Position numbers and translations under genes: made by a program. A model generated the notes under the pieces. The model was not told the origin of the DNA, made no database searches, and saw only the letters and a program-made list of their open reading frames with translations. A stretch of DNA of 64,000 nt from Schmidtea polychroa (lineage: Eukaryota), in the NCBI GenBank assembly GCA_044892525.1, contig CM097885.1:74524001-74588000 (forward strand), in the 5' to 3' direction. Of the stretch, positions 6,420-62,110 are shown piece after piece (position 1 is the first letter of the stretch; each line of letters opens with the position of its first letter).

Positions 6420-7488
6420 TGTTAAGATCGAAAAAACGGGGACTACAGATCTTAACACAAATGACTCCAATAAGTTAACTAAATAAAAATAAATATAAAT
6501 AAGTTATATTTAATGTGGTTGCGCGTTTTAATATTTAAATCACTAAATAAAAAACAACTAACTAACTCCTTTCTATTTTTATAAAAATATATTTAATAAC
6601 TTATAACAGAAATTTACAAAATATGTTCAAAGAGTACAAGTAAACGGATTTATTAATCCTTACTGTTTACCAACAGCCTGCAAGAAATCGATGGCTCCTG
6701 TGTAGCACAACGATCGCTAAATAAACTAGAAAGATAGTGGAAAAAGCAAGAGGGTTGATTTTGGGGCTACCAGGTAACACGAAAGTCGCTATCTGTACTT
6801 TGTGTTCGCTTTATTTAATTCCCTTCCCAAGGATAATAATTTATCCTTACCCAACACAATTAATTAAATCTTTTACCTTGCCTGAATTTAACTGCTCCTT
6901 CTGTTGTCACTAATCTGTTTCAATTTCTCTTTCAAGTCTTCCTTTTTTCTCTGGTCAATTCTCGTCCGTAATTTATAGAAAAGTTTCTGCGATAATTAAT
7001 TCGTAATTTGAGCCGGACTTTCGCCTTGTGAGACTAAAATATTCAAATTTGATCCGAAACCTTGCGATTGTGGTCAAATTCTTGGAATTAATTTATCTCG
7101 GTGATTCTTTAATCACGTTTCTTCGATGGATCAATTAACTACTTTTCTGGTTATTATTCTCTCCAATCTATTCGTTAATTTAACTTTCAATCACAGTTTT
7201 TATCGTCCTCAAGATTATCGTCTCCAATTTTTCTCTCTCTCGTTTTGGTTTTGAAACGGTATTTATATTATTTTTTACTTATTTAATATATTAATAGTAC
7301 TTATATAATTACTATATATAGTAATAGTATTCACAAATATTCCTATATATTACCTAATTCTATTAATAGTAATTAAAAAGACTTATCTTTTATTTTCGGT
7401 AACACTTTATTATTTTTATTTATGGTATTACTAATTATAGTAATTTTTTATTTATTTTGTCACTAAGGCTCCAGGCCTATCCCTAACA
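6420..7488 (-). repeat. 3' LTR (1069 bp)
   Basis: Element-sense TGTTAGGGAT...ATCTTAACA. Near-identical to 60909-61973 (reverse complement) and to 20637-21232. Confidence 0.95.
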
Positions 7489-7490
7489 AG

Positions 7491-7502
7491 TCTTACCCCC
7501 TA
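7491..7502 (-). promoter_or_regulatory. Polypurine tract
   Basis: Minus strand reads AGGGGGTAAGA-CT immediately before the TG of the 3' LTR. Confidence 0.7.
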
Positions 7503-7734
7503 AAAGATTTTCGTCTCGAAAACAAGACCAACAAGACTAAAGAAAGGCTTTTGGTAAACAGCATTACACTAAAACTTAAAAAAAATTAATCAAATAAGAC
7601 AAAACACAAAATTAATGTTTCAGATAACAAATAATGAATGTCAAAACACTGAATTGCACAAAACACATAATAGTTAAGTCATTTTATACACATTTTGAAT
7701 TCGGCGACACATGTTGGGTGGCAACGTTCTTGGA

Positions 7735-9806
7735 TTAGATGTCCAGATCATCGGGATCTGGGTCTGGAACTTTGTACAGGTGCAACTCCTTCGTGCTGTA
7801 GCTATTTGCGACGACGTATTGCTGCAGCAACTTCTTTTTCCTCTTCTGTAGGACTTCTGGCTCAAAACTCACTACCAGAGGCTTGCCATCCAGAGCACTT
7901 GTTAAAATGACTGTAGACACTACGTACGGGATTCCGTCTACGTCATAAACATCATATTTTTGATTATTATTGACTGCCATTCTCGTGATTGGTTGGCAGT
8001 CATACTCCTTGGCTCTGGGTTTCCATTTGCTATCCGGACGTTTGTACCACATTGGTTCGAAACCGTCCACATCAACCGAAACCGGTTTCTTGATAATATT
8101 CTCCTTGGCAATCTTTAACATTTTCTGCCTAACCACAGGTTCAGATTTAACCTTTATTGCTTCCTGCATCTCCTTAACCGGAGGTTGAAAGGCAACTTCC
8201 ATAATGTCATCATCTGGTTCGCTGAATATCTTTTGAGGTTTAATAGTCCTAACTTCCGAACTGCTAGGTGTCTCTTTTGTCGTTCCTTCCGGGGTTTAAC
8301 AACTTTCTTCAACTTTAGCTTCGACTTGTCTCTTTTTATGGGTAACATTTTCTTTAACATCTTTTTCACCTTGCCTCCTTCTGGATTTTCTTTTCTGACC
8401 GCATTATCCAATTTATCCTTTGGCTGATAGGCAGCTCCTGATGGTTGTTTAGGTGATTTTGCTGTCTCTATTTCGCTAGCACATGTTTCATATTCATCTT
8501 CTTCTCCAATAGATATGGCTGGAGGCGGTGGTAGATCCACAGGTGATTTCCTCTTGGGCTGGGGTTGCTCTGATGTAGATGGTTGCTCAGGTAATCTCCT
8601 CTTCTGCGTCATTTCCTGTTCAACTATCGCTGCTGTAGTTGCGGAAATGAATTCCTCCTGAGGTATCGTGATATGGTCTAACCATTCGTTTCTGATATGT
8701 AAATAAACAGCACGTATTGCCAGTGCCTCATTGGTGACCACTAAATTCCTTGGTTCTCCGGGAACCGTACGCAGGAAAGTCTTTGTCAGGAATCCCAATC
8801 TGTAATGACCATGAATCTTTGGGACTCCTCTGGTTTCCAATAGTTTATTTGCAGAAAGATCACGAATACCCAATATTCGCTGCACTGGTAGATTGGCTAC
8901 CAAGATCAGATCTTTAAGTAAAATACCTACAAGTATTTTCTTATCACAGATCTTTCTTATCAAATGATAACAATCGTCTTCATCGAGATTTCCTCTCATG
9001 TCGGGTTCTTTTAACTTATATTGGTGCGTTTGGTAATGTTTTACTGGATCTCTGGGAGTCACTACCGCACTCAATAAATTATTTCCTCTCATATCCATAA
9101 TTGCGATTTGGATAATTGTCTCCTTCAATTCGATTCGGGATTTGGCAAAACCTGCCGATATGAAAATTGTAGCCTCGTCCTCCTCGGCTTTGGATAACTT
9201 CTTCCTCACAAATGATTTACACTGCCGTATATCGTCTTCATTTACATTATAAATCCAAGTTGGCTCGTTTTTGCTAACTATAGAGTATGGCTTCCTGAAG
9301 TCTAAGATTTCTATTGCGATTATGGTGTCCACCGCCGCTGCCTGGATCATAATATTCCGTTCTCGTCCATCAGCGTGGTATATCTCCAGAGTACACTGTT
9401 TTTCTAATTCAACAGGTAACTCTAATCCCGCCATAAACACCGTGAATGGCCTATTGATCGCATGAATCCACAAGTTTTCTATTTTCGGACATGAACCGTA
9501 CTCTCTACATAGTTCCGCCAATTTTAATCTACCTTGGTTATTTATAACCGTTACCATCATTTGCCTTCGAGGCCCTCCTGGAAATTTGAAGTCGTTTGGA
9601 ATATCCACTCTCCTGGGATAATACCAATAGTTTGAGGTGAGGTGATTCATTTTTGCTGCGACCGTGGTTCCGATGAACCGATATACATACTCTTCTTTAT
9701 AGGTGCTATACGCTTCAGTTTCAACTCGAGTTTGGGAATTGTACGTTGCCAATGGGTGTCGTCGATTTGCTTTGACTGGCGGCTTTGATTCTCTGTTATA
9801 ATTCAT
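7735..9806 (-). pseudogene. 3' accessory ORF with REX4/ISG20-like DEDDh-fold domain lacking ExoI acids; one frameshift and one stop (8296-8298)
   Basis: ORF 8154-9950 (likely true ATG at 9806) contains QIAIMDMRGN..VTPRDPV..YQT, KILVGI..DL, IRDL, RLGFLTKTFL, NEALAIRAVY, matching REX4/ISG20 spacing. The -1 frame from ~8370 joins it to ORF 7735-8202. A diverged paralogue lies at 49487-50930. Confidence 0.6.
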
Positions 9807-9810
9807 TTTT

Positions 9811-9830
9811 CTAAAAATAAAATAATTAAC
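9811..9830 (-). promoter_or_regulatory. Candidate splice acceptor for a subgenomic accessory mRNA
   Basis: Minus strand TTAATTATTTTATTTTTAG|AAAAATG, 4 nt before the ATG at 9806. Candidate donor CAG|GTAATA in the short leader at 20520/20519 (62090/62091 in the other arm). Confidence 0.45.
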
Positions 9831-10010
9831 AGCTTTTATCACTTTCGTGATAGACCCTCGCAGGGTAACCAAAGTCGACATACGCTGATGTCTGATTTTA
9901 CCAATGCTCATTTGAGCCCACATTAGTCTACATACTAATATAAATAACATATATATAAAATAAATAACTATATATATTTACACTTCCTAGTATATGGTGA
10001 GACTTTCCCC

Positions 10011-11048
10011 CTATACCTCGGTTTCGTAAATATTTTCCCAATAACGCATATCTCGTATATTTAATCTAAACATCCATAGGGTGGTTAAGAGCAAAATTAA
10101 AATCATGCAAATTACTCCCCCTATCATAATTAACAATAGCCATGTTGGCGTTTTCTCCCTCGCTGCCCCCTTTAACGTATTTTGACAACTACAATTATTA
10201 ATTATTTTAGTTATGCGGGGCTGTTTTACACTCGCTACCTTTCTAATACTAAACCAATCTAAAGCATTTATTCCTTTACAACCAGGAATATTCACTAATC
10301 TAGCCTTTCCTTCTTTGCTAGTTAGTTCTCCTCTTGTGGGAGGTATTAGATTTATTATTTCTTGATATATTGTATACCAACCGGTTCTCTCCGTAAATTC
10401 CAAATACGAAATGTTCGCCTTTGTCACGGTATCTGGTTTGATTTTCCATCTTCCACTTAGATACGCATGGTTGAGCACTAATCTCTCGACTCGCTGGTCG
10501 TCTTCTAATATGACGATTAACGCAATTTTATTATTCGTCCTCCAATCGTGAGTGGAAGATGTATCATTTCTGTTCCACCGTGGATGAGTAAATCTAACTA
10601 TCTGCCCGAGATATGAAATCTCTACTTTTTTGGTAAATTTTGCAGTCTTCAAAATCCATGCTGCTTTATCTACACAATCTCCTCCATCTGCAAAAACGTT
10701 TGGGTCTGCAAAGAATGTCTTGATTTCTAATAGATAACTTGTATTCGGCATAAGTCCCTCTATTACTTTCACTCGATCCCATGTATTCAAGTGAAATGAT
10801 ATCCCTCTTTCAGCAGCTACCAAATATAGATCATATCTATGCCATTGTATATTCGTTAAATGAAATCTGAATGCTCTATCTGTTCGTTGATATTCGATAT
10901 CTGGATGTTGACTGGCTTTAGGTGTGAATACCTCGAATGCCTGTCCAATCATCATGACACAGCTAATCACTGCTAAAAATGTAACTGTTTTCGGGATTTG
11001 TCGAGATCGTAAAGGGTATCGTTATGGTTGTCCCTTTAGGATACTTTT
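10011..11048 (-). CDS. C-terminal polyprotein extension: RYPLRSR, signal-like segment, FN3-like ectodomain, TM helix, short tail
   Basis: In frame with integrase (78 nt = 26 codons between 11048 and the GTG at 10970; stops at 11049-51 and 11022-24). TVTFLAVISCVMMIGQA signal-like; KVIEGLMPNTSYLLEIK FN3-like; WLLLIMIGGVICMILILLLTTLWMF TM. Confidence 0.7.
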
Positions 11049-14000
11049 TTATGATTCTAACGTTTTCTTTTTCGATTTCTTATCTATTTCGAATTCATCA
11101 ATTTCTGATTTTGGTTTCTCCTTTTCTGGTGGGGCTATCTTTTTACATCTGTTTGCATGAACCATTATCGGTTCTGCTTTTCTGTTTGCCACTAACTGTA
11201 AGACTAAATTGGTTTCTGTGACTTTCAAAATTTGATACGGCCCTTTGTAATTTCTCATTAATTTAGGAGATAAACCTTTTTTGTTGTAATGTCCTTCTAA
11301 CATGACATAATCTCCTACCAAAAACCCATGATCTTTCGCTTTACGATCATGATATTCCTTCATTGTTTCTTGGTTATAACGAATGTTCAAACCAGCTTTC
11401 TTCCAGGCTTCTTGCATTCTTTCTCTCATCTCGAATAAGTAGTTTCCCTCATCACAGTTCTGTGATGCTTTTGGATAAAATATAAGATCCACTGGCATCT
11501 TGCTATGCCTTAAATACATCAGATAGAAAGGTGTTTCTCCTGTTACTGAATGAACAGCATTTCTATACGCAAACAAACATGATGGTATGTGTACATCCCA
11601 GTCCGTCTGACCTGAGTTTACGTATGATGATAACATGTTTGCCAAGGTTCCATTGAACCTCTCTACCAATCCATCCGTCTGTGGGTGGTATGGTGAGGTA
11701 TTTAATTTTAAAATACCAAAATAATCATTAATACTTTTTAACAAATTCCTCATGAAATCCTTTCCTCTGTCTGTAAGCAATTTTGCCGGAACACCATATC
11801 TAAATACAATTTGTTCTACAAAAATTCTGGCAATTGTGTCTGCCTTATGGTTCGGAATCGGGAATGCTTCGGGCCACTTCGTTAAGTAGTCGCAAAATAC
11901 TATGATAAATTTATTTCCCATCTTCGATTCTTTAAACGGTCCTAGTACGTCCATAGCTGTCATCTCCATTGGCGAGGACGGTACTGGCATTGGTTTTAAT
12001 GGAACATGTGGTTTCCTGCCTGTGTTCCTTCTAGTTATACATATTTTACACGACTGACACCACTTTTGAACATCATCTTTTATATCGGGCCAAAAGTATT
12101 TCATTTTCAATCTTGACAGTGTATGTCTAGCTGAGAGGTGTCCTCCCAGTGCTCCATCGTGGTATTGTAATAATAGTGATTCTCTGTATTTCTTTGGCAC
12201 TAATATTACATTATCTCTTGATTCCACATATTTGATTAGACCTTCTTCCAATATGAATTTATCTTTATGTTTCTCCCAATACTTCTGAAATTCATTTGGT
12301 ATGGCCTTTGCTTCTATAGCTTGTCTGATCATATTAATTTCGTCATCATTTTTCTGTGCTTCTACTAAATCGCTCAAAGTGTTAGCCTCTCTTGTTAGCA
12401 TGAAGATTGTTCCTTCTAATCTTCCTTCCTTTATATCTTCTAACTCAGGCTCTTGCTCCATTCGTGATAATGCATCTGCATTACCATTAGCTTTGCCTTT
12501 ACGATATACAATTTCAATTTTATATGGCTGTAATCTCAATGCCCATCTTACTAACTTTGATGCTTCGTCTCTATGTTTTAACAGCCATTGCAATGGTCTA
12601 TGATCTGTATAGAAAATTACCTTTCTGCCCCATAGGTAATGACTAAATTTTTCCACTGCAAATACTAATGCTAATGCTTACAATTCTATTACAGCATAAC
12701 TTTTCTCGTGTGGCTTCAATCCACGACTTGCATATGCTACTGCGTACTCATCGCCAATTTCGTCTTTCTGTCCCAAAACTGCACCTATACCTCTTGTGCA
12801 TGCATCGGTCATCACCATGAATTGTCTTTTAAAATCTGGGAATCGTAAAATTGGTGGTTTGCATAGTGCATCTTTTAACTTGTCAAATGCCTGTTGCTGA
12901 TCCTCTCCCCATAAAAATTTTATACCTTTATTTTCTAAGGTAGTTAGAGGAAAAGCAATTGCTGAAAAGTTTCGTATAAATTTCCGGTAATATCCCGTCA
13001 ACCCTAAAAATCCTTTGATTTGTTTCACATTCACTGGTTGTGGGAAATTCTTCACTTTATCCGTGTTTGCCGGATCTGGTCTTACACAATCGTGTGATAT
13101 TACATGCCCTACGTAAATCACTTCCGATTCTGCCCATTTGCATTTGCTTGGCTTTACTTTCAGGTTAGCCATAATCAGTCTTTTGAAAATGTCCTCCAGA
13201 TGTTCCAAATGTTTATCCAAATCTTCCGAGAAGATGATAATATCGTCGATATATACCATTGCGTGATGTGCGTCCATCAACATGATATTCATTGCCCTCT
13301 GAAACGTTGGAGGAGCTCCTTTTAATCCGAACGGCATTACCAAGTATTCAAAATGATCACTACTTGTAGAAAATCCTGTCATAGGAATTGAGTCTTTGCT
13401 CATCTTTATTTGATAAAAACCTTTCTGTGCATCCATCACAGTAAACAACTTTGAATTTTTCATTTTATCATAAATGTAATCTAGCAAAGGTAGCGGGTAA
13501 TTATCACTAACTGTTTGTTCATTTAATTTCCTATAGTCATTGCATAATCTAACTGAGCCGTCTCTTTTAGCTACAACCACCAAAGGTGAGGAATATGGAG
13601 ATTTACTGGGTCTGATTATATTATATTTTTGCATTAATTTAATTTGTTTATCAACGGACCCTTGTATACTTTGAGGTATTCTGTACGGGCGTATTTTTAT
13701 CGGTTTATTTTCTGTTAATTTAATTTCATGCTCTAAAATATTAACTTGCCCTAAGTCATACTCGTGTTTTGCGAAAACTTGGTCATATTTACGTAACAAT
13801 TGGTTAACTCTGATGTTTTCCTTTCTATATAAGGTTTTACTATCGCAGCTCGGTGCGTCGTAATATTCGATATCAGGATCTCGTTCATCCTCTTCTACTG
13901 ATAATATCGATTCAGACTCTTTCTGCATGTTAGATAGTTGTATCACTTTACCCACTCTAGTCTCTGGGTATAATCTCAATGATTTGCTTGCTAGATTCGT

Positions 14001-14560
14001 TAATCTAATCGGGATTCTTCCTCCCCGTACTGTTGCCAAGTTTTGCACCATAGGTGTTTTATACCTATTTACGAACTGCTCACTTGGTTCGAAAATAACA
14101 TCTCCTTCCACCTCTTGGTGTGTTGCTACAAAACAAACTGTTTCGGTCCTCGGTGGTATTGTCACCGTTCTATCCAAAAACACTACATCCACACTGTAGG
14201 TTTTTCGTTTTCTACCCGTCATTTTCATTAATTCGCCTGTTGCACAATCGAATACAATATCTTTTAACTTTTTCAATATATCCATTCCCACGATACATTC
14301 TGCCATACATTGTCTAGTGACTTTGATATCGTGTCTAAATTTTTGATCACACAACCTTAATTCACAATCTAATGTTCCGATAACATTGATAGGTTGTCCA
14401 TTTGCTCCTGATGCAACAGTTAATGTCGGCACTATTGCTTGTAATTCTTTTTCGTTTAATAAATTTGCTTCGATCAAAGTCAAATCTGATCCTGAATCAA
14501 TAATGGCATGTACCGTATGCCTGTTAACTTTTAATTTAATCGTAGGTTTATGAGTCTTTT
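11049..14560 (-). pseudogene. pol: pol: aspartic protease, reverse transcriptase, RNase H, integrase (one in-frame TAA at 12678-12680)
   Basis: AIIDSGS (PR); YIDD (RT); VMTDAC and IEL*ALAL (RH; stop at the conserved Glu); H-x7-H..CQSCKIC, MDVLGP, TDRG, GLVERFN (IN). Confidence 0.95.
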
Positions 14561-15129
14561 TACCCATATTGACCATTAATATTGTTGAGATTCCTCTAAT
14601 ATTATCTCTGAACTTTTGTTGATCATCACTATCTTTGTCATTTTCTGATTTTATTTCATCTTTATACTCTTCCTTTAGCCGTTCCAACGTGCTGAATGGA
14701 TATTTTGGTACCATCTCTAATACTGATGTACCCAAGGGTGGCATTGTCTCGAACTTCATTTTATACGTTGGGTATGAGGTAGATGGTAATATATCTGTAT
14801 TTGTTCTAAACTCGAACCTCTTTAACATTTCCTCTTCAACTCGTTCTGGTATTATCTTTTTTCCACCCTCGTATGGTGACAAATAATTCACAGGCCACTC
14901 CTGCCGTTTCCTTCTTTTTGCTTTAACAGGGTACTGTTGTAAAGTACTATTTTCAAAATTTTTAAATTTCGGTTTTTTGTTGTCTGGTTTTATTGAGGTG
15001 TTGTCTGAGGTCTCATAGCCCTCTAGGTTACCTCCCTCGTCAGAATTGTCATCGTCTCGATGACTAGGTTCATACATTATTAACTCATGTTTCTTTATAG
15101 TTTGTCTCTTCATTCTCTTAATCTCTTTA

Positions 15130-16990
15130 TTATGATGATGAAATACTGCAAAATCTGCACAAACTGGACACATTCCTAATAGCAACTTCCAAGACCATCC
15201 CCCGATCTTGAAGATACTATAGGTGGAAAATAATTGCGATATAATTATTTTCAATATCATCACTATTGCATATATACCTGAACATCCTGCTACAAAAATG
15301 CCAAAGCTTGTAAATCTACCCCAGATTTTCCGTATTACGTTTGATGCAGCTTGTTTGTAATGTTCTGGTCCAAATAATAGATTATAGTCCGGTTTTCCAT
15401 CATATGATTGATAGATTCTTGTTATTATCTCTGTCACTCCCCGATCTCTGATTTGGGGAAATACAATTGCTCTCCGAGCTTCTTCAATATCTTCCGGAGT
15501 ATATACTCCGCCCTTTGACATTTCGTTTAATGGTTGAAACTCCATTTTAGTTTCTAACTTTGTAGCTTGAAGCACTTCAACTGGTTTTGAAGGCGGCTTT
15601 CTGTTTGGCAATGAAATCCAAATATTGTTTATTTTGTATAATGGTGACATTGCTGGATTGCAAATTGCTGTTAATGGTGAGGTATCCTCCTTCAATAATT
15701 GGTGTGATACTGGCATCAGGAATCTCAATTTTCCTTTATATTTCACAGGTAGCTCCAATGTACATCGATCATATTTGGTGATTTCTACCTCTATTGCTTT
15801 GCATTGATAGCTATAAATTGCTTCACCCAAAATTCTACCAAATGTTCCTTCCTCTGTCAACATTGGCATTATTAAATCCGGATTAGCTATAGATATTGCT
15901 AATCTATTTCGTATTATTTCCCGATTCAAACGTCAGTCGTTCAGGATCACTTCCTGATACACATCTAATAATTGTTTCTGCAGATCATGATACAAGAAAT
16001 CAATCTTATTATTGATATACTTGGCTATTTTAATATCTGATAGATGCAATGATTCTGCTGCCGGAACATACTTGTATGCTAAGTATATTCCCTTGTAGTT
16101 GGTTTCAAATATTGGTACACCACATTTTGTTGTCTGTTTTTTTCTGACTAAGCGAATTGCATCTGTGGGATCCTTTGAGACTAATACTACTGCTGTGCTT
16201 TTCTCTGGTACCACTTCCTTTTTCGTTTTGTGAGCTATCTTGTCTCCCCAACCACTTTGTTGTGAATCCTGAGACGTAAAACTTTTCCCATCTAGCCTTG
16301 AAAATACTACCTTTTTCAGGTATCCTAAATCACAAAAATCTCTCATTGATTGGTACGTTAATACTGCTAAACTGGTTTTACAATAACCATATTTCACGTT
16401 GCATTCTGGATGAGACATCATTTTTCCCGTGGATACTTCGAAAGTTCCTTCGTACTCTATCAGCTCTACTGTGTAGTCCTCAACTGTTACCACATAGTTT
16501 ACTACATTAGAACCTCTAACTTTCTTTCTACCATGACAGGAACCATCATCTGCTATCGGTCCTCCCCGGGTAATAGTTATACCCAACTTTTTCCCTTCTT
16601 CTGCGGTAATTGTCACCTCATGATCTATTTTAACTGTTTTTGACCGAAAAGCATTTACACAATCCTCTGGTGGGATGATTAACGGTATCGGAATGAGTTT
16701 AGCTCCTAAAAATGCTGAATAACTATTCGATCCACAGTAATATTCGAACGTCGCTCTCTGTATTCGACATTCCCTCACTCTGGTTCTGTAAAACTCTGTT
16801 TGCTGATAAACATGATATTCCACGTATTCCCTTTTTGCAACTTTATCTGGATATGCTTCCTTGCATTCCACTGTGTCTACTAATGAGTAGATTCGCGATA
16901 ATATTGGTTCACTGCAATCATATGCCGTTAGGGAATTTGTCTGTCGCAATATTCCCATCATTACCAACAACATCATCATCCAACTAGTAA
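15130..16990 (-). CDS. env-like class III (chuvirus/herpes gB-like) fusion glycoprotein embedded upstream of PR; one in-frame TGA at 15933-15935
   Basis: Hydrophobic signal WMMMLLVMMGIL, then LTAYDC, many Cys, CGVPIFETNYKGIY, YINNKIDFLY, CTLELPV, GGVYTPEDI, TM FTSFGIFVAGCSGIYAIVMILKIII and GWSWKLL. ILND*RLNREII is in frame. About 620 aa. Confidence 0.75.
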
Positions 16991-17069
16991 ATCCACCTGT
17001 TCCCCGTGGACTACTTGAAATATTTTCTGTCAACAATTCTTCATTTAATTCATATTTTCCTTTCGTTTC

Positions 17070-17456
17070 TTTTATATCCCAAAACTTATGTTCAGTCATC
17101 CATGTTCTGAAATTCACTTCGATGATATCAGTCAGCTTGTCTATGGCTGCTGGAATTTTCGACGAATCATCTTTAATTATGCTCAATGCATTTTTAAACA
17201 TTAAGGCTAGAATCGTTATCATTTTCCCTTTCGTCAGGCCTTCGTCTATGAATTGCCCTGCTATTTCGAACATCTCCTGCTCCGTGGTGCTTCCTGGAAT
17301 CTTTTCCATAGCTTTCTTGACTTTTTCTGCAATTTTGTCAACATTAACACTTTTATCTTTCTTAATTTGCCAATCAGGCTTGATCAATCGTAAGATTTGA
17401 CTTAGTATTTTCCATGTTTCCGTTTTATCACTAGCGTCTCCAACGCTTTTATCAAT
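17070..17456 (-). CDS. Bcl-2-like helical domain within the polyprotein
   Basis: BH1-like MFEIAGQFIDEGLTKGKMITILALM (cf. F.EVA.ELF.DG.NWGRIVAL) and BH2-like FRTWMTEHKFWD (cf. W.....GGWD), with plausible spacing. Confidence 0.55.
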
Positions 17457-18929
17457 TTAGCTAGCTATCCCTGCTAGAGCCTGCTTAGTTACATTTTGGA
17501 TTGTAACTGGTTTTAAAAGTTCTCTTGGGGGCGGGTTCATTTGACTTTTCCTCGGTCTACCCCTTCTCTCTCTTTTCTTTTTATTCTCGACTAACTTCGG
17601 GCTCACTCTTTCTCTTGGTGGCTCGACTTGTCGCGATGTACTAGCTCCGATGTTTGTTTCATCTTGATTTAATTGTACTTCAATATCTTCCTCTGTAGGA
17701 AATATTTCGACCAACTCGTCTTCCGTGTTATCAAGTTCCTTGAGATATTTGTCTATCTCTTCATCTAAATCTACTGTAGTTACGGGTTCCTGATGAGTAT
17801 TCCCGTCTACTTGTTTTTGCTCAGGATGTACTGTTTCATCCTCCATTTCAGCATTATCTGGCAATCTCAAAGTTGCCCATTGATCCTCTGGAAACTCTAC
17901 CAATAATATTAATACAACTGTTTCCTCATTGGGAAAGCATCCAACATCTACTAGAAATTCGTCGTCATCCACCTGACAACCATGTATCATTATTAGGAAT
18001 GATTCTTTTACTATTTCTGATATTCTTTTTCTCAGTTTCTTTACTCTATGATAACATGAGAATTGTTGTATCAGGTGTCCTCTCCTGGGTATCCTGATAT
18101 CTAACATCACTGGACCTTGTCTACCTTCCAAATGTCTAATAGCATGTCCATTTTTAATCAACAGCATCTTTGCTTGAGTCTGAAATTGTGATGTCTCTTT
18201 TACTAAAGGCACCACCAATGGCATTATCTCTCTAAGAGTATCTACTGGGATTCGCAACTCCAGTATCCAATCCATTATCATCTTAATGGCTTCCCCATCT
18301 CTTGTGTTTTTCATCAGTTCGATTCCCAATCTATGTGGTACGGCTGATATTTGATTTAATTGATCAATTTCAATCTCGCTTATAGTAAGGACATTATCCA
18401 AATCCACTACTGTAACAGTTTCCTTGTGAAACTTTGCTTTTATAACCATATTTTTCCCTGGTAGTATACCACAATCTAACAAGGTTTCTCCCTCTAATAA
18501 TCTTTCTCCCAATAAATATAGTTTGCATCTCTGTTGAGGTTTTACCACAGAAACTCTCTTTGCCAATGCTTCTACCTTTTCACTTGGGTTAATCGTATAT
18601 CTACGAAAACAACCCTTTGGGAAAGATACAAAAATTGTAGAATCCTCCAGATTCTCTCTTTGTTTCCAATTTAGGCCAATATTTCTCAGAATTTCTCTCA
18701 ATTCTGTATAATATTCCTCATTTCTGTCTAACTCTGATATGATATCTATTACTTTGTCAACCTCATTCTCATTAACGGGGTTTAAACGAATATTTTCTAA
18801 TTTCTGTCTCATTTCTCTTTGCCATACGCTCTTGCGTAATAGTATTTTTCTACAGTCATCGATGGGATTTCTTTCCTCTTTCGATGCTTCTCGAACCTTT
18901 ATTGGTTCACTACCCCACTCACCTCGCAT
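17457..18929 (-). CDS. Polyprotein segment with two ubiquitin-like domains (~18429-18641 and ~17892-18110), acidic linker and AT-hook (17547-17567)
   Basis: TIFVSFPKG..YTINPSEKVEALAKRV..QQRCKLYLLGERLLEGETLLDCGI aligns with ubiquitin; MLDIRIPRRG..VKKLRKRI..HGCQVDDDEFLVDVG..TVVLIL is a second UBL; RRGRPRK AT-hook. The TAA at 17457-59 is followed by an open in-frame reading into the next ORF. Confidence 0.7.
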   Translation of the reverse strand: MRGEWGSEPIKVREASKEERNPIDDCRKILLRKSVWQREMRQKLENIRLNPVNENEVDKVIDIISELDRNEEYYTELREILRNIGLNWKQRENLEDSTIFVSFPKGCFRRYTINPSEKVEALAKRVSVVKPQQRCKLYLLGERLLEGETLLDCGILPGKNMVIKAKFHKETVTVVDLDNVLTISEIEIDQLNQISAVPHRLGIELMKNTRDGEAIKMIMDWILELRIPVDTLREIMPLVVPLVKETSQFQTQAKMLLIKNGHAIRHLEGRQGPVMLDIRIPRRGHLIQQFSCYHRVKKLRKRISEIVKESFLIMIHGCQVDDDEFLVDVGCFPNEETVVLILLVEFPEDQWATLRLPDNAEMEDETVHPEQKQVDGNTHQEPVTTVDLDEEIDKYLKELDNTEDELVEIFPTEEDIEVQLNQDETNIGASTSRQVEPPRERVSPKLVENKKKRERRGRPRKSQMNPPPRELLKPVTIQNVTKQALAGIAS

Positions 18930-18940
18930 GGATGATGTGG

Positions 18941-19525
18941 CTATAAGAACTTCCGGCTCACTGACCGAAGCCCATTTTTTTCCAATACTTCTGTTGGAAC
19001 AATTTCATTAGCTACTGGATCCATGTCCATAGCCTTACGATTTTTAACTGGTGAAACCGGTAAACCTTCTATTTCTCTGTCGGCTTCTGGCTCCATGACC
19101 ATAGCCACTAGATTTTTCCTGGGTGAAACCTGTAAACCCTCACAGACCTCTGGTTCTATGACTATAGCCTTTTCCTCTTTGTCCTCCCATGGACTCTCTT
19201 GAAGCATCAACACTTCAAGTTCTACATAATTATTTTTATTTCGCCTTTTTCTGGCTGACGTCATATAAACACCTTCATTTTCATCGTACTCATCCGTTTC
19301 ATTTGTTGTTAGCCTCGCTAACCTGTTTCTCTCTTCTTGAATTTCTAATTCAAGCTGCTGCAAATAAGTTAATTTGTGATCTGAATTCACGGCAAACGTT
19401 GTCTGCTTCGATCGATTATTATTAGCATTGTCACTACCATTGTTATTAGATAACTGATTCTGTGGACAAGAACGCATAATATGACCAAATTTCCCACACT
19501 TATGACATTTAATTTCCCCCCCCCC
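18941..19525 (-). CDS. Gag continuation in the -1 frame: fourth CCHC knuckle, coiled coil, EPEV-type repeats
   Basis: After the G10 run the -1 frame reads EIKCHKCGKFGHIMRSC (C-x2-C-x4-H-x4-C) directly into ORF 18941-19477. Confidence 0.75.
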   Translation of the reverse strand, partial: GGGEIKCHKCGKFGHIMRSCPQNQLSNNNGSDNANNNRSKQTTFAVNSDHKLTYLQQLELEIQEERNRLARLTTNETDEYDENEGVYMTSARKRRNKNNYVELEVLMLQESPWEDKEEKAIVIEPEVCEGLQVSPRKNLVAMVMEPEADREIEGLPVSPVKNRKAMDMDPVANEIVPTEVLEKNGLRSVSRKFL

Positions 19526-20499
19526 GAATTTACTTCATCCCTTTTAATATTATTATTAAAATTACTATTTCTACTCTGAAAGTTATTATTATTATTATTA
19601 TTACCACGAAAATTCCTATCGGGGCTTCTATTTCTATTATTATTATTATTTGAATTATTTCCCCCAAAACTAGCTTTACAAACTGACGCTACATGTCCCT
19701 TGCGCTTGCATTTCTCACAATTTAGGTCCGAAATTCTACAGTTTGATGCCACATGATTATTTCTCCCACACTTGGTACACAATTTGTCCCCTGGAGAATT
19801 ATTCCTACTTTTACAATCTTTTGACATATGTCCCTTTTTATGACAATTAAAACACTCAATGTCTGACTTGTTGCTACTAATAGCAAAATTATTTGATTTC
19901 TCAATGCTACTTTCAATTAAACACGCTTTGCGAGTTAATTCCTCTAAATTATCTCCTATGTGTAAACTGAGTGCATTTCTCATTGCTGACGATAACCCTG
20001 ACCAAAACTGATCTTTCACTAATGCTCTAGTTGCATCATTCCAGGCTGCCCTATTACCAAATGCTCTCTCTGCCAACATCATTATTTGATATGAAAATTC
20101 CCCAACAATCTCACCCGAATTTTGTCGCCTGTTATAAAACTGTTGTCTCAGCACTCTAGTTGCATCCCCCGGTAATATTCTGTTTTGTAACGCTAATCGT
20201 AATACATTCCATTCAACTGGATGCTCGGCTATTATAACATCGTTATATATTTCCCGCGCCATCCCTTTTAAATATAAAGGTAATCTCAAAATCATTACCG
20301 GTTCCGGGAATCCTAATGCTCTGGCTAACTGAAAATATTCGGACATAAATTCTGGAAACTCCCCTGGGTTTCCACTAAATGGTTTAATCGGAATTGTTGG
20401 GTATCTCATAAAATCTACCGCTGGTGGTTGAGCTACTGGCACATTATTATTTTGTAAATTATTCTCATTTAGATTTTGTAAATTATTTATCTCTGCCAT
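19387..20499 (-). CDS. gag: Gag (capsid plus three CCHC zinc knuckles)
   Basis: PFSG..LPLYLKGMAREIY retrotransposon-gag motifs; CFNCHKKGHMSKDC, CTKCGRNNHVASNC, CEKCKRKGHVASVC. Confidence 0.92.
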   Translation of the reverse strand: MAEINNLQNLNENNLQNNNVPVAQPPAVDFMRYPTIPIKPFSGNPGEFPEFMSEYFQLARALGFPEPVMILRLPLYLKGMAREIYNDVIIAEHPVEWNVLRLALQNRILPGDATRVLRQQFYNRRQNSGEIVGEFSYQIMMLAERAFGNRAAWNDATRALVKDQFWSGLSSAMRNALSLHIGDNLEELTRKACLIESSIEKSNNFAISSNKSDIECFNCHKKGHMSKDCKSRNNSPGDKLCTKCGRNNHVASNCRISDLNCEKCKRKGHVASVCKASFGGNNSNNNNNRNRSPDRNFRGNNNNNNNFQSRNSNFNNNIKRDEVNSGGGKLNVISVGNLVILCVLVHRISYLITMVVTMLIIIDRSRQRLP

Positions 20500-20615
20500 T
20501 ATTTGCTGGTTTCTATTACCTGGTCTTAAATTTATTACCCTTCTATTTCTTAACTCAATGATTCAAAAAGATGTTTGCCTTTTATAAATAAAATTCTTAT
20601 TCCCCTTAAATTGCT

Positions 20616-20633
20616 ATCACGTCGGGCTCACCA
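20616..20633 (-). promoter_or_regulatory. Primer binding site, tRNA-Trp
   Basis: TGGTGAGCCCGACGTGAT, 3 nt after the LTR end; one mismatch to the tRNA-Trp PBS TGGTGACCCCGACGTGAT. Confidence 0.85.
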
Positions 20634-20636
20634 AAA

Positions 20637-21232
20637 TGTTAAGATCGAAAAAACGAGGACTACAGATCTTAACACAAATGACTCCAATAAGTTAACTAAA
20701 TAAAAATAAATATAAATAAGTTATATTTAATGTGGTTGCGCGTTTTAATATTTAAATCACTAAATAAAAAACAACTAACTACTTTCTATTTTTATAAAAA
20801 TATATTTAATAACTTATAACAGAAATTTACAAAATATGTTCAAAGAGTACAAGTAAACGGATTTATTAATCCTTACTGTTTACCAACAGCCTGCAAGAAA
20901 TCGATGGCTCCTGTGTAGCACAACGATCGCTAAATAAACTAGAAAGATAGTGGAAAAAGCAAGAGGGTTGATTTTGGGGCTACCAGGTAACACGAAAGTC
21001 GCTATCTGTACTTTGTGTTCGCTTTATTTAATTCCCTTCCCAAGGATAATAATTTATCCTTACCCAACACAATTAATTAAATCTTTTACCTTGCCTGAAT
21101 TTAACTGCTCCTTCTGTTGTCACTAATCTGTTTCAATTTCTCTTTCAAGTCTTCCTTTTTTCTCTGGTCAATTCTCGTCCGTAATTTATAGAAAAGTTTC
21201 TGCGATAATTAATTCGTAATTTGAGCCGGAAT
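20637..21232 (-). repeat. 5' LTR, truncated (first ~470 bp missing)
   Basis: Identical in diagnostic positions to 61378-61973; identity stops at ...TTGAGCCGGAAT (21232). Confidence 0.92.
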
Positions 21233-26099: not shown

Positions 26100-29000
26100 T
26101 GAAATAGTTAAAACCGATAAAAAAATTATAACAAATTCTGAGGAAACTGAAATTATTGCACCAGAACCTATAGTAATTACTGAGGTTATAATAATTTCTG
26201 ATGACGATGAAAATGTACAAGAAGAAGAAGATGGAGCTGAAGATCACGAGGAAGACCGTAGAGAAGATAGGCCAGAAGATGGAGCTGAAGATGGCGGAGA
26301 AGACCGTAGAGAAGATCGCGAGGAAGATCGTGGAGAAGATCGTGAGGAAGATCGTGGAGAAGATGGAGCTAAAGATGGTGCTGAAGATGGGCCAGAAGAT
26401 GGTGGAGAAGGCCTTGGAGAAGATGGTGAAAATTTACCAGTGATCGAATATGATTTGAATCGATCGCATAGAGTAATAAAATTAAACATTGAAAGATATA
26501 ACATGAATACCATTGAATTACCAGTTCCTATTTTACTTGCATTGAGAAATGCTTTAAACGAACTCGGTCGGTCACGCAAAAATCCAATTTGGGGTTAATG
26601 TGGAATTTATTAAAGATGGAGGCACAAAAACTGCGTGGATTTCAAATAAAGCAACAGAATATTCAGAAACATTCCTTGAGCAAGGTATTAAAAAATTATA
26701 CGAAAAAATAAATGTTCAAACTGTTGAGGGAAGCAGTTGGACTGTGAACAAAGTGTTAGAAATAATTTTCACTGACACAAAATATCATCCAATAAGTAGG
26801 CTAAGCGGACATAGCTACTTGAAGACACCAGTGACTTTAGCTAATAAACATGCTATAGTTAATATTAAAAATACGGATAATTTATGCTTTCTTTATGGCA
26901 TACTTTGTATTAAAAATTTGGATGTAATTCGAACAAATAGGCAACGAGTTGAGAATTATGCAGATTATATGGATCAATTGATGTATGACGAGGAAGATTT
27001 TCCTATGCAGTTATCTAACATAAGGAAATTCGAGCGAATTAATCCAGGACTGGCAATCAATGTTTTCAGTTACACTTGCACAAATGTTTTGAACATCGAT
27101 GAAAATGATGAGGAAACCGTTTTTAAACATCCGAATTTGGATATAATACATCGGACTAAAGTAGAGGGCGTAGCACCGATCTATTTGCTAATGTTGGAAG
27201 AAGGTGAAAAGTTTCACTATACTGCTGTTACTAATCTGCAGCGGTTAATGAATTGTCATGAGAGCGAAGATTGCCCAGTTCGGATTCAGTGCAAATGGTG
27301 CGAAACATATCTGAATGGCTTTAGAAAAGATATGGCTTTTGAAAAACACAAAGCAATTTGCAGCAAAAATATTCTCGGTACTACAATGTACACGATGCCT
27401 CAAAATAAAGATTTGGTATTTAGTGATTGGTCCGAAACAGTCACTCCACCATATGTTATTTACGCTGATTTCGAGGCGATCTTACCCGATGATGAAAGAC
27501 ATCATCAAATTCATTTACCAATAGCAGTGGGGCTGTTGTTGATAAATAATTTCACTGGGGTAAGTGAATACCATCAATTTATTGGGCCGGAATGTATTGT
27601 GGAGTTTTTGGCAAAAAATCGAACAACTGGGGCAGCAAGTAGTTTTGCAATACTATTATAGAAATGCAAGGAAAACAATGACAATGTCAGCAGCAGAACG
27701 GATCGCATATAATAGGGTGCGAGTGTGTTATCTGTGCAATAAAAGAAAATATTTAGTCAGAGATCATGACCATTTTACGGACGAATATTTGGGCGCAGCA
27801 TGCAATGACTGCAATTTATCAAGACAAATAAGATATTTATTACCGGTAGTATTTCATAATCTAAAAGGATATGACTTACACCATATTTTGAAATACGGAC
27901 TCAATGAATTTACACATTAGTCCTTAAATTGTATTCCAACAACAACGGAAAAATTTTTATCATTGATGGTGAGAATAAAAAACTTAACCGTGCGTTTCAT
28001 TGAAAGTTTGCAATTTGTCAATGATTCGTTGGCAAAAGCGGTTAAGTCATTGAGTGGATTACCGCTAACTCGTTCAGTATTTGGTGGAACATTGGTAGAA
28101 ACAAAAGGGATTTTCCCTTATAATCATGCGAAAAGCTTAGAAATTTTGGAAAACACAACAGAATTGCCACCGATTTGGGAAAAAGTAACACAAGAAGAAT
28201 ATCAGAAAGCACTGGAAATTTGGGAAGAAATCGGTTGTCAAAATTTACTGGATTACATGAAAATATATTTGAAGCTGGACGTGTATTTACTGGCCGACGT
28301 ATTCCAGCAGTTTCGAGCAAGATCAATAGCGCAAAATAAATTGGAGCCACTAAATTTCTTTGGTATTCCCGGAATGAGTTGGGCATCGGCACTCATGACG
28401 CTAAGGGAACCCATCGAGCTTTTAGTCGACATCGAAATGTACAATTTTTTCGATGGAGGTATACGTGATGGTCTCACATTTGTGAATAAACACTATGCAG
28501 TGTCGTCAGAAAACACTGAGTTGTTGTATATCGACATCAACAACTTATACGGCTGGGCATTGAGTCAAAAATTGCCATGTAAAAATTTTAAATGGATACT
28601 GGAGGAATCGGATTTGGAATCGATTTTGGAACAATGTGTGAATCAAGATTTAGAAACATTGGATTATGGCTATACCATGGAGGTGGACATGGAAATTCCA
28701 GATGATTTACACGACAAATTCGATGATTTCCCAATCGGTGCAGAGAAGATGAAAGTGAATAAGGTCGAAAAGTTAATGCTAACACATTTACCAAAAACAA
28801 ACTATGTTTTACATTGGCGACTCCTGAAAATGTACATGTCATTGGGTGTACAAGTGGAGAAGATACACCGGGCAATAAAATATGAGCAAAAATGTATCTT
28901 TAAGAACTATATAGATACGAATACACAATTGCGGGCAAATTCAACAAATGCTCTGGATAAAAACTACTACAAGTTATTGAACAATAGCTTGTATGGCAAA

Positions 29001-29766
29001 ACAGTAGAAAATTTAAAGAAGCGGTTGAATCTGAGGCTGTGCAACAAACAATCAAAAATGGAAACTTATGCCTCAGCCCACATTTAGGAGGTCGATCAAA
29101 ATAGCAGATGATCTGATAGCAGCAATATTGAATATGGAAACTGTATGTTTAGATAGGCCAAGTTACATTGGGCAAAGTGTACTTGACTTATCCAAACATA
29201 GAATGTATGAATTGCACTATGTAGAACTGGAGAAGTATAGAAAACAATTCAAATGCAGTGTAGATATTTTAGCCGGGGACACGGATAGTTTTTTCCTGGA
29301 ATGTAAGAATGTGAAGTTGAGAACACAATTACTTCCAGCCATGATTGCCGATAATTTATTGGATACAAGCAATTATGATCCGACAGACCCTTTGTACAAT
29401 CAAAACTTGGATTCAGTTATAGGGAAATTCAAGGATGAAAATAAAGGTAAAAAATATAAAGAAATGATATTTCTAAGACCCAAGTGCTATAGCCTCTTGA
29501 ATGAAGATAATGATACAACAAATAAGGAAAAAGGGGTAAATTTAGAGGATAGTATTATAAATCATCAATCATATGTAGTTTGTTATAATGGTATGGTAAT
29601 ACCGCCAATTCCTCAAAGTAATATAAGCACTAGAAATCATCAGCTTTTCACTATAAAAAATAATAAGGTTGCATTAACAAATACTGATGATAAAAGGGTC
29701 TGGGTTGCTATAAATAAAAGTCATGCATATGGGCATTATGCAGTAAATTGGCGGGCTCCTATTTAA
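26100..29766 (+). pseudogene. polB: Polinton/Maverick-type protein-primed DNA polymerase B with endonuclease VII-like insert; 3 frameshifts and 1 stop
   Basis: YADFE (ExoI), VFHNLKGYD (ExoII), YLKLDV (ExoIII), DINNLY, KLLNNSLYGK, GDTDS, RPKCY; CYLC..VRDHDH..G..CNDCN insert. Shifts at A-runs ~26580 and ~27615 and at ~29075; TAG at 27918-20. Acidic EDR/EDG repeat at 26200-26430. Confidence 0.92.
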
Positions 29767-35334: not shown

Positions 35335-38300
35335 TTAAATAGGAGCCCGCCAATTTACTGCATAATGCCCATATGCATGACTTTTATTTATAGCAACCCA
35401 GACCCTTTTATCATCAGTATTTGTTAATGCAACCTTATTATTTTTTATAGTGAAAAGCTGATGATTTCTAGTGCTTATATTACTTTGAGGAATTGGCGGT
35501 ATTACCATACCATTATAACAAACTACATATGATTGATGATTTATAATACTATCCTCTAAATTTACCCCTTTTTCCTTATTTGTTGTATCATTATCTTCAT
35601 TCAAGAGGCTATAGCACTTGGGTCTTAGAAATATCATTTCTTTATATTTTTTACCTTTATTTTCATCCTTGAATTTCCCTATAACTGAATCCAAGTTTTG
35701 ATTGTACAAAGGGTCTGTCGGATCATAATTGCTTGTATCCAATAAATTATCGGCAATCATGGCTGGAAGTAATTGTGTTCTCAACTTCACATTCTTACAT
35801 TCCAGGAAAAAACTATCCGTGTCCCCGGCTAAAATATCTACACTGCATTTGAATTGTTTTCTATACTTCTCCAGTTCTACATAGTGCAATTCATACATTC
35901 TATGTTTGGATAAGTCAAGTACACTTTGCCCAATGTAACTTGGCCTATCTAAACATACAGTTTCCATATTCAATATTGCTGCTATCAGATCATCTGCTAT
36001 TTTGATCGACCTCCTAAATGTGGGCTGAGGCATAAGTTTCCATTTTTGATTGTTTGTTGCACAGCCTCAGATTCAACCGCTTCTTTAAATTTTCTACTGT
36101 TTTGCCATACAAGCTATTGTTCAATAACTTGTAGTAGTTTTTATCCAGAGCATTTGTTGAATTTGCCCGCAATTGTGTATTCGTATCTATATAGTTCTTA
36201 AAGATACATTTTTGCTCATATTTTATTGCCCGGTGTATCTTCTCCACTTGTACACCCAATGACATGTACATTTTCAGGAGTCGCCAATGTAAAACATAGT
36301 TTGTTTTTGGTAAATGTGTTAGCATTAACTTTTCGACCTTATTCACTTTCATCTTCTCTGCACCGATTGGGAAATCATCGAATTTGTCGTGTAAATCATC
36401 TGGAATTTCCATGTCCACCTCCATGGTATAGCCATAATCCAATGTTTCTAAATCTTGATTCACACATTGTTCCAAAATCGATTCCAAATCCGATTCCTCC
36501 AGTATCCATTTAAAATTTTTACATGGCAATTTTTGACTCAATGCCCAGCCGTATAAGTTGTTGATGTCGATATACAACAACTCAGTGTTTTCTGACGACA
36601 CTGCATAGTGTTTATTCACAAATGTGAGACCATCACGTATACCTCCATCGAAAAAATTGTACATTTCGATGTCGACTAAAAGCTCGATGGGTTCCCTTAG
36701 CGTCATGAGTGCCGATGCCCAACTCATTCCGGGAATACCAAAGAAATTTAGTGGCTCCAATTTATTTTGCGCTATTGATCTTGCTCGAAACTGCTGGAAT
36801 ACGTCGGCCAGTAAATACACGTCCAGCTTCAAATATATTTTCATGTAATCCAGTAAATTTTGACAACCGATTTCTTCCCAAATTTCCAGTGCTTTCTGAT
36901 ATTCTTCTTGTGTTACTTTTTCCCAAATCGGTGGCAATTCTGTTGTGTTTTCCAAAATTTCTAAGCTTTTCGCATGATTATAAGGGAAAATCCCTTTTGT
37001 TTCTACCAATGTTCCACCAAATACTGAACGAGTTAGCGGTAATCCACTCAATGACTTAACCGCTTTTGCCAACGAATCATTGACAAATTGCAAACTTTCA
37101 ATGAAACGCACGGTTAAGTTTTTTATTCTCACCATCAATGATAAAATTTTTTCCGTTGTTGTTGGAATACAATTTAAGGACTAATGTGTAAATTCATTGA
37201 GTCCGTATTTCAAAATATGGTGTAAGTCATATCCTTTTAGATTATGAAATACTACCGGTAATAAATATCTTATTTGTCTTGATAAATTGCAGTCATTGCA
37301 TGCTGCGCCCAAATATTCGTCCGTAAAATGGTCATGATCTCTGACTAAATATTTTCTTTTATTGCACAGATAACACACTCGCACCCTATTATATGCGATC
37401 CGTTCTGCTGCTGACATTGTCATTGTTTTCCTTGCATTTCTATAATAGTATTGCAAAACTACTTGCTGCCCCAGTTGTTCGATTTTTTGCCAAAAACTCC
37501 ACAATACATTCCGGCCCAATAAATTGATGGTATTCACTTACCCCAGTGAAATTATTTATCAACAACAGCCCCACTGCTATTGGTAAATGAATTTGATGAT
37601 GTCTTTCATCATCGGGTAAGATCGCCTCGAAATCAGCGTAAATAACATATGGTGGAGTGACTGTTTCGGACCAATCACTAAATACCAAATCTTTATTTTG
37701 AGGCATCGTGTACATTGTAGTACCGAGAATATTTTTGCTGCAAATTGCTTTGTGTTTTTCAAAAGCCATATCTTTTCTAAAGCCATTCAGATATGTTTCG
37801 CACCATTTGCACTGAATCCGAACTGGGCAATCTTCGCTCTCATGACAATTCATTAACCGCTGCAGATTAGTAACAGCAGTATAGTGAAACTTTTCACCTT
37901 CTTCCAACATTAGCAAATAGATCGGTGCTACGCCCTCTACTTTAGTCCGATGTATTATATCCAAATTCGGATGTTTAAAAACGGTTTCCTCATCATTTTC
38001 ATCGATGTTCAAAACATTTGTGCAAGTGTAACTGAAAACATTGATTGCCAGTCCTGGATTAATTCGCTCGAATTTCCTTATGTTAGATAACTGCATAGGA
38101 AAATCTTCCTCGTCATACATCAATTGATCCATATAATCTGCATAATTCTCAACTCGTTGCCTATTTGTTCGAATTACATCCAAATTTTTAATACAAAGTA
38201 TGCCATAAAGAAAGCATAAATTATCCGTATTTTTAATATTAACTATAGCATGTTTATTAGCTAAAGTCACTGGTGTCTTCAAGTAGCTATGTCCGCTTAG

Positions 38301-47255: not shown

Positions 47256-48355
47256 GGATCATAAGTCAAATTTCCCCCCAGGGGGAAATTTGACCATTGA
47301 TTTTAATTAAATAAATTTTATTAATTTAATAAATTTAAAAATATTGATTGTATTTTTATAATTCCTATTTTTTAATCCTTTCAATGCAAAATTTTTACAC
47401 TGAAATACTGGAACAAATAATAGTTGGTAATGTTGATATCCAATATGAATTTTTGCTGAATATTGGCATTTTGAAACGAGAAATAAAATGTAATTACTGT
47501 AATGAAAGAATGAAGGTGAGGATTTGTAAAAGAGTAAAAGATGGTAGAGTTTTATTTTGTTCAAAGAAAGATTGTTCAAAATATAAAACTACAAAATCTG
47601 TTAGAACAGAAAGTTTTTTGGACAATTTTAACATCACCTTTAAGGATATTTTGAAAAATTTTTGGAAATTTTCTCAAGAAGTATGTTGTTCAACCTTTCT
47701 ATCGGAACTTGATTGTGCAGAAAAGGTATTATATAAATTATATGGAAAATTGCGTGGTTTATTCCATGATTATTATGTGGAAAATATTGAAATGATTGGT
47801 GGTCCTGGACATATTATTAATCTTGATGAATCAATGTTCAGGCATAAACCAAAATACCACAGAGGAAGAGCAACGGATCATGAGATCTGGGTGTTTGGAA
47901 TTGTGGATTCTAGTTATGTGCCTGCAAAAGGTCTAATGTTTGTTGTTCCTAATCGATCTTCTCAAACACTATTGCCTATTATACAACAACATGTAATTCC
48001 TGGATAAATTATTCACACCGACGAATGGCGTGCTTATAATAACATTTCTAATGCCGGATTTGAGTATCATACAATTAATCATAGTTTAATGTTTGTAAAT
48101 CATGAAACTGGAATACATACACAGTTTATTGAATCATATTGGGCGAAGCAAAAGCAACGTCAAAAAAACAATGAAGGGCATAAGAGGTAAAAAATTAAGT
48201 GAATATTTAGCGATGTTTAATTGGTGGGATAATGTTTGTCAAAAAAACTTTCAAAAAGTTATTGAATTAATTAAATTATTTAATTATTTATTATTCTTTT
48301 ATTGGGGGAAATTTGACCATTGATCAAAAAAGGGGGGAAATTTGACTTATGATCC
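47256..48355 (+). mobile_element. Merlin (IS1016/ISXO2-like) DNA transposon, complete ends, 1100 bp
   Basis: Perfect 24-bp TIR GGATCATAAGTCAAATTTCCCCCC (47256-79 and 48332-55); 8-bp TSD GAAGATAT (47248-55 and 48356-63). Confidence 0.92.
47380..48290 (+). pseudogene. Merlin transposase (ISXO2-type DDE), one stop and one frameshift
   Basis: GGPGHIINLDESMF, WVFGIV, PG*IIHTDEWRAY, INHS..FV..TGIHTQFIESYW. Confidence 0.88.
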
Positions 48356-60795: not shown

Positions 60796-60908
60796 CAGTA
60801 TGGGACAAAATAAATGTAATTTTTTAAAACTACTATAAAAAATGAATCAAAATTTATAAAAGAAGTAACTAAGTTTACAATAACCTTACCTGCATATTTT
60901 TAATATAT
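60796..60908 (+). mobile_element. Left end of the Tc1 element whose body lies at 5075-6419
   Basis: TA then CAGTATGGGACAAAATAAATGTAATTTTT, 113 bp upstream of the LTR; ends in ATAT (the TSD). Confidence 0.85.
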
Positions 60909-61973: not shown

Positions 61974-61976
61974 TTT

Positions 61977-61994
61977 TGGTGAGCCCGACGTGAT
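61977..61994 (+). promoter_or_regulatory. Primer binding site, tRNA-Trp
   Basis: TGGTGAGCCCGACGTGAT. Confidence 0.85.
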
Positions 61995-62110
61995 AGCAAT
62001 TTAAGGGGAATAAGAATTTTATTTATAAAAGGCAAACATCTTTTTGAATCATTGAGTTAAGAAATAGAAGGGTAATAAATTTAAGACCAGGTAATAGAAA
62101 CCAGCAAATA

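Follow-up and report, generated by a model that had tools for sequence, protein, structure and literature searches.

A duplicated helix and ubiquitin-like module without a terminal diglycine in planarian GAG-ENV-POL errantiviruses

Introduction

Among described systems, the closest to the locus analysed here are the Burro/GYPSM1 elements, giant gypsy-like planarian elements whose polyprotein combines Gag, a Ubi2/SUMO-like domain (PF11976), a BCL-2-like domain, an in-frame mononegavirus-like Env and PR-RT-RH-IN (Arkhipova & Yushenova 2019, PMC6431247). According to that account, Burro exceeds 30 kb, has an ORF1 of ~4900 aa and carries MATH, BIR and ankyrin cargo, and elements of this type have been suggested to meddle with apoptosis and ubiquitination; the account names one ubiquitin-like (UBL) motif, no helical partner domain and no duplication. 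BURRO1 is derepressed upon PIWI loss (PMC8532177). A second point of comparison is a catalogue of six Schmidtea GAG-ENV-POL errantiviruses, in which Smed_errantivirus_1-4 have listed spans of 14.5-14.9 kb (eLife 2026, PMC13524379). The words 'ubiquitin' and 'Bcl' have 0 occurrences in the accessible text and supplements of this catalogue, where the insert discussed below is undescribed, and the accessible part of PMC11410931 adds nothing further on it. Our literature searches returned no account of the helix+UBL module or of its duplication, although Grohme et al. 2018 with its supplements, Jurka 2007 and Repbase may bear on the smaller families or their UBLs. The UBL itself is thus already known from Burro, and the repeated helix+UBL module is apparently new.

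Here we analyse 64,000 nucleotides of Schmidtea polychroa DNA (assembly GCA_044892525.1, contig CM097885.1, forward-strand positions 74,524,001 to 74,588,000), called the window throughout, with positions counted from its first letter. A sequence-only reading of this DNA had pointed to tandem UBLs without a C-terminal diglycine (GG) and had likened them to di-UBL proteins and to pestivirus ubiquitin inserts, with decoy or adaptor roles in mind.

Results

The UBL stretch is enclosed by an LTR element on the minus strand (6420-21230), a Ty3/gypsy GAG-ENV-POL errantivirus of ~14.8 kb whose two LTRs share 99.2% identity over 598 nt and form both ends of the element (Table 1). The Env match to PF24664 lies above the Pfam cut-off, and in other copies Env stands in frame between gag and pol. 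Between Gag and Env lies an insert in which two modules are followed by an acidic linker, an AT-hook-like motif and a Bcl-2-like domain. In sister families the Bcl-2-like domain has Pfam E-values between 2e-5 and 6e-5, which, like that of the window element, fall short of the curated cut-off; the AT-hook-like motif, which scores E 0.027 against Pfam AT_hook in the outside protein P0010, is absent from families C, F and H.

Table 1 Features of the errantivirus in the window
Feature	Position	Strand	Basis and remarks
3' LTR	6420..7489	-	~1070 nt, from comparison with 60908-61973
Protease, reverse transcriptase, RNase H, integrase	11049..14552	-	Pfam, Ty3/gypsy order; internal stops
Env, Monjiviricetes (chuvirus / HSV-gB-type) fusion glycoprotein	15057..16931	-	PF24664, E 1e-26 and 9e-45; one internal stop
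Short hydrophobic stretch before Env, putative signal peptide	16932..16991	-	inferred; under the hydropathy threshold of 1.6
Bcl-2-like domain	17064..17318	-	Pfam E 0.052
Basic AT-hook-like / NLS-like motif after acidic linker	17544..17579	-	kept in 8/13 proteins examined
UBL2, beta-grasp half of module 2 (predicted)	17898..18113	-	7/73 identical to host ubiquitin; conserved acidic loop; no GG
Helical bundle, module 2	18135..18356	-	homologous to module-1 bundle
Inter-module linker	18357..18425	-	low model confidence
UBL1, beta-grasp half of module 1 (predicted)	18426..18641	-	14/74 identical to host ubiquitin; no GG
Helical bundle, module 1	18666..18866	-	homologous to module-2 bundle; outside the 17892..18641 span of the sequence-only reading
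gag, CCHC knuckles and coiled coil	18980..20562	-	Pfam; frameshifts near 19517 and 18978
5' LTR	20637..21230	-	interrupted at 21230 by large palindrome

The copy in the window is broken by the two frameshifts listed in Table 1 and by in-frame stops at 17457, 15933, 12678, 11049 and 11022, and cannot make the polyprotein. Its relatives are abundant: with 144 of 1191 candidates scored, so that all match counts are lower bounds, the genome search gave at least 145 matches, at least 81 of them to family A, to which the window element belongs (68-100%), and at least 64 to the sister family B (44-45%). Open frames of 3513-3516 codons hold 11 of the 81 listed family-A matches, and in unbroken copies Gag to integrase is therefore one polyprotein. 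At G000:C2:100881208-100910444, three family-A matches lie exactly 14218 bases apart and form a tandem array of the element.

Beyond integrase, some 340 residues encoded at 10011-11021 (-) have a hydrophobic end and no Pfam family above cut-off. A second ORF after pol (7768-10010, -), 775 codons long in another copy, has no Pfam match and by eye resembles what we take to be a decayed DEDD exonuclease; a 37% relative of it occurs at 49948-50553. A near-perfect palindrome of 22.7 kb (21230-43896, centre near 32565) begins exactly at the 5' LTR cut and represents an inverted duplication or an assembly fold-back. It contains, at 27921-29087 and 36014-37180, a fragment of protein-primed DNA polymerase B (PF03175, E 1e-25), likely a Maverick/Polinton piece. 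A weak ISXO2-like transposase match (E 7e-4) lies at 47348-48007 (+). At 60908-64000 and in loci L113 and L114 the full element reappears in inverted orientation together with its 3' flank, at 99.97-99.99% identity; this is therefore a duplication or artefact rather than a second insertion. No RNA dataset was listed as containing the stretch; contigs of four sequencing runs, one guessed to be RNA, cover it, which indicates the presence of the family only.

The window element resembles Platyhelminthes errantiviruses with HSV/gB-type Env in gene order, Env type and size, and its Env matches that of Smed_errantivirus_4 at ~72/98 residues (~73%), counted by eye (PMC13524379). It represents a sister family of Smed_errantivirus_4, not the same element. 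Like Burro, it places a UBL and a BCL-2-like domain, the latter sub-cut-off, before an in-frame Env; the sequence-only reading had not named this Burro-like errantivirus setting, for which a UBL at this position has been described. It differs from Burro in its length of ~14.8 kb, in its 3516 codons in unbroken copies and in its separate RT branch, and it lacks Pfam matches to MATH, BIR, ankyrin and dUTPase. A search for BIR led not to this element but to a 392-codon accessory frame that Burro-type elements carry separately. Elsewhere in the genome, short multi-copy Bcl-2-family frames adjoin polymerase B or A32-like ATPase genes (L057-L059) and make up another source of Bcl-2-like genes among its mobile elements.

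The sequence-only reading had described two UBL-pattern segments separated by helical sequence at 17892..18641. This description is borne out, and a beta-grasp fold is predicted for both UBL1 and UBL2 by modelled structure and structural alignments (single-sequence fold prediction was unusable, with a pLDDT of 40). The nearest profile matches of the fold are ISG15, ubiquilin and NEDD8, and the fold matches include BVDV polyproteins, by fold only. In the ESM Atlas, the best feature matches are mostly ubiquitin-family clusters at 0.81-0.85, which serve as leads only, and no usable match was obtained for the helical half. The repeat unit is larger than the UBL: it is a module of ~160 residues, a helical bundle followed by the UBL as its C-terminal half, and this module is duplicated within the Gag-Env insert of the window element. 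Against a profile of four first modules, the six modules that stand second or alone score 19.9-49.6 bits, with 10.1 as the best of 1200 shuffles, and the reverse test gives 21.0-51.0 bits, with 12.4 as the best of 800 shuffles. Helix and UBL are both spanned in 7/10 of these cross-module matches; those for A2, B2 and C2 start later in the helix (profile positions 57, 32 and 46, respectively). Between families A and B, no other part of the insert is as well conserved as the module-2 bundle (63% identity).

ISG15 and FAT10 are head-to-tail di-UBLs. The module shares the beta-grasp fold with them, with OASL and with pestivirus ubiquitin inserts, and, as in ISG15, FAT10 and OASL, the fold occurs twice per chain. 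The earlier analogy with ISG15 and FAT10 nevertheless does not hold, as each UBL here is one half of a duplicated helix+UBL module: instead of a short hinge, 104 residues that include a helical domain lie between the UBLs, there is no GG, and di-UBL structural alignments reach only 9-19% identity. Integral UBL proteins (ubiquilin/Dsk2, BAG1, Rad23, TBCE/TBCB) offer no sequence-level link to any single one of them and differ in arrangement, the helical domain of the window element preceding the UBL and the unit being repeated.

All eight related families examined in the genome, Burro included, carry the module, in one, two or probably three copies. Families C, D, F and H were found via Env and Bcl-2 profiles and a family-F protein search, and their inserts show a helical bundle ahead of each UBL; the module is double in families A, B, C, F and H and single in family D. 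In a Burro-type element with in-frame MATH, the module profile has a match (E 7e-6) where Burro is described as carrying its UBL, between MATH and the Bcl-2-like part; two further matches upstream are weaker (E 0.002 and 0.06). A second giant element carries the module at E 6e-13, plus one weak upstream match. The RT tree groups A with B, C with F and H, and the two giant elements together, leaving D unplaced; in RT-RH, the window element shares 42-43% identity with the giant pair. Mapping the distinction between last and upstream modules onto the module tree takes 2 changes, and the tree, with its open backbone, does not order the duplications.

Beyond the genome, word-based searches at near and longer lengths returned no homologues, which were found by a full HMMER profile scan of 1.84 billion proteins (546 matches at E <= 0.001). 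Most of the 150 listed matches cover the UBL part only. Fifteen proteins chosen by match span among these 150, together with one cluster member, all carry the module (16/16); they are unnamed metagenomic proteins, and wherever neighbouring sequence is present in them the setting is that of gag, zinc knuckle or Env, with AT-hook as a further companion. Two records checked as controls are poly-UBL proteins. In one outside GAG-ENV-POL relative with the module, P0029, as many as four stretches resembling aspartic protease follow Env.

That the UBLs are non-conjugatable, as had been proposed, agrees with all ends inspected: GG is absent from 18/18 modules of the genome and near 18/18 outside-homologue UBL ends, 5 of which stop <=12 residues after the UBL. 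The 18 modules match the host ubiquitin unit at 7-15 of ~73 positions. A protease-site matrix built from six gag-side octamers, which gives high ranks to some positions within folded domains as well, recovers the RH/IN and pre-protease boundaries in families A and B and finds no protease-like site at either UBL C-terminus. These results bear on whether the UBLs could be processing signals, as pestivirus ubiquitin inserts are, or inert spacers. BVDV polyproteins do appear among the fold matches, by fold only, and a high-scoring protease-like octamer sits in the inter-module linker of family B, but not of family A. Yet GG occurs at 0/36 UBL ends, the GG-ended ubiquitin fusions of this genome belong to an unrelated BEL/Pao family, and helix and UBL are both under purifying selection (see below). 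We regard this possibility as very unlikely. The pestivirus analogy itself is not supported: there is neither a GG for a host DUB nor a protease-like site at the UBL C-termini. The BEL/Pao family in question (L061-L070, DUF1759 Gag) has one or two near-canonical GG-ended ubiquitin units before Gag, with captured host pieces upstream (DSPc, EAP30, proteasome).

Compared with the Rad23/Dsk2-type patch of L8, I44 and V70 with its basic flank, the exact patch residues are each retained in 1/18 modules and R42, R72 and R74 in 0/18, yet position 44 is hydrophobic in 11/18 (a mapping taken from sequence alignment at 10-23% identity). The UBLs might nonetheless imitate ubiquitin, diverting the proteasome, DUBs or ESCRT readers as decoys or serving them as shuttles, a role foreshadowed in the sequence-only reading and now doubtful. 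The fold and the closeness of ISG15, ubiquilin and NEDD8 in profile searches are consistent with it, as are the hydrophobic position 44 and the hydrophobic residues of family-A UBL2 at 44, 68 and 70. The low identity to ubiquitin, the rarity of the exact patch residues and the absence of R42, R72 and R74 argue against it, and the conserved surface feature is instead an acidic loop, found in 7/18 own modules and 11/20 outside module matches. With the basic residues lost and GG missing, the UBLs are unlikely to be cleaved in the pestivirus manner, and their close mimicry of ubiquitin is doubtful; we consider a ubiquitin-mimicking decoy or shuttle improbable.

Variation among copies indicates that the module is maintained. 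In 23 gap-free family-A copies (21 distinct; gapped L036 and truncated L018 excluded), variants present in at least two copies comprise 43 synonymous and 19 nonsynonymous changes, a pN/pS of 0.12 overall and of 0.12, 0.13, 0.04 and 0.16 by domain, the UBLs standing at 0.13 and 0.16. Between families, dN/dS is about 0.13-0.55 where dS is finite: 0.13 for the helix and 0.16 for the UBL between D and D2, 0.21-0.35 between H and F, and a maximum of 0.55 when module 1 is compared between A and B, where dS is near saturation and identity is 21-30% (fast drift). The module is under purifying selection in helix and UBL alike, with constraint looser than in Env or RT.

LEDGF combines AT-hooks with an integrase-binding-type domain (IBD), and we presume from inspection by eye that the helical half resembles TFIIS-N/LEDGF integrase-binding domains. 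It was compared with 11 host TFIIS-N pieces and one host LEDGF-family piece, the latter matching PDB PSIP1 (E 0.002). Four hhalign comparisons with host TFIIS-N gave probabilities of only 0.1, 3.3, 0.7 and 1.7%; the last three show the expected register over 51-57 columns (P 0.013, 0.086 and 0.029). In the last of them, 0/100 column shuffles reach the score, yet the reversed alignment scores higher (14.25 vs 13.45). Two of the 11 host TFIIS-N domains score ~8 bits in register. The LEDGF-family piece scores 0.9 bits, a value equalled by 18/500 shuffles and 30/173 unrelated windows, and the invariant glycine of the host TFIIS-N set is unmatched in the helical half. PDB sequence searches with P0024, with a helix-only profile and with a deeper alignment, which in effect was a profile of 439 positions rather than of the helix alone, brought up no TFIIS-N/LEDGF entry. 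Pfam scans likewise returned no TFIIS-N/LEDGF family, and none is among the 50 listed structure-search matches, a list filled by UBL entries that barely probed the helical half. All of these absences are compatible with such a likeness. At the level of sequence, the likeness to TFIIS-N/IBD thus appears to be in register but weak, with a reversed control scoring as high.

The helical half might accordingly be pictured as a captured TFIIS-N/LEDGF integrase-binding-type domain, the insert as a self-encoded chromatin/integrase tether or elongation-factor decoy, and the UBL as its partner domain. The single register in three of four profile-profile comparisons, the modelled size and helical content of the bundle, which would fit, and the AT-hook-like motif after the last module in 8/13 proteins all lend themselves to such a picture. 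The hhalign probabilities and the reversed alignment that outscores the real one weigh against it, together with the score of the LEDGF piece and the unmatched glycine, and we hold it to be unlikely. Its boldest form, which we think has a slim chance of being right, is that these errantiviruses encode a LEDGF-like cofactor of their own, a TFIIS-N/IBD+UBL unit repeated 1-3 times and then an AT-hook. It would tether integrase to AT-rich chromatin or hijack elongation factors, and would share a single accessory protein with a Bcl-2-like survival domain.

Discussion

Taking as established the fold, the module duplication, its position, its spread across families, the purifying selection and the absence of GG, we lean, by a modest degree, towards an account in which both UBLs, as integral domains that lack GG, form the second halves of a duplicated helix+UBL module and serve as docking surfaces of a protease-released accessory protein. 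The insert would stay on the cytosolic side, in the cytosol or the nucleus, because it precedes the putative signal stretch ahead of Env. The aspartic protease of the element may cut the insert after the nucleocapsid/coiled-coil region, and perhaps also between modules. The product would comprise the module or modules, the acidic linker, the AT-hook-like motif and the Bcl-2-like domain, and would dock host factors, with partners that are probably other than classic ubiquitin readers. The expressing cell would probably be kept alive or permissive. In line with this, further regulators of apoptosis and ubiquitination are known from Burro-type elements (PMC6431247), and those of this genome carry TRAF/MATH, ankyrin and BIR.

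Planarian GAG-ENV-POL errantiviruses emerge as abundant and recently multiplied elements that carry host-like regulatory domains. The module is a compact, well-folding and selected unit, common to small and giant (Burro) families and varying in copy number among them. It can be expressed alone for structure determination and partner searches, whereby the suggestion that such elements meddle with apoptosis and ubiquitination (PMC6431247) becomes testable.
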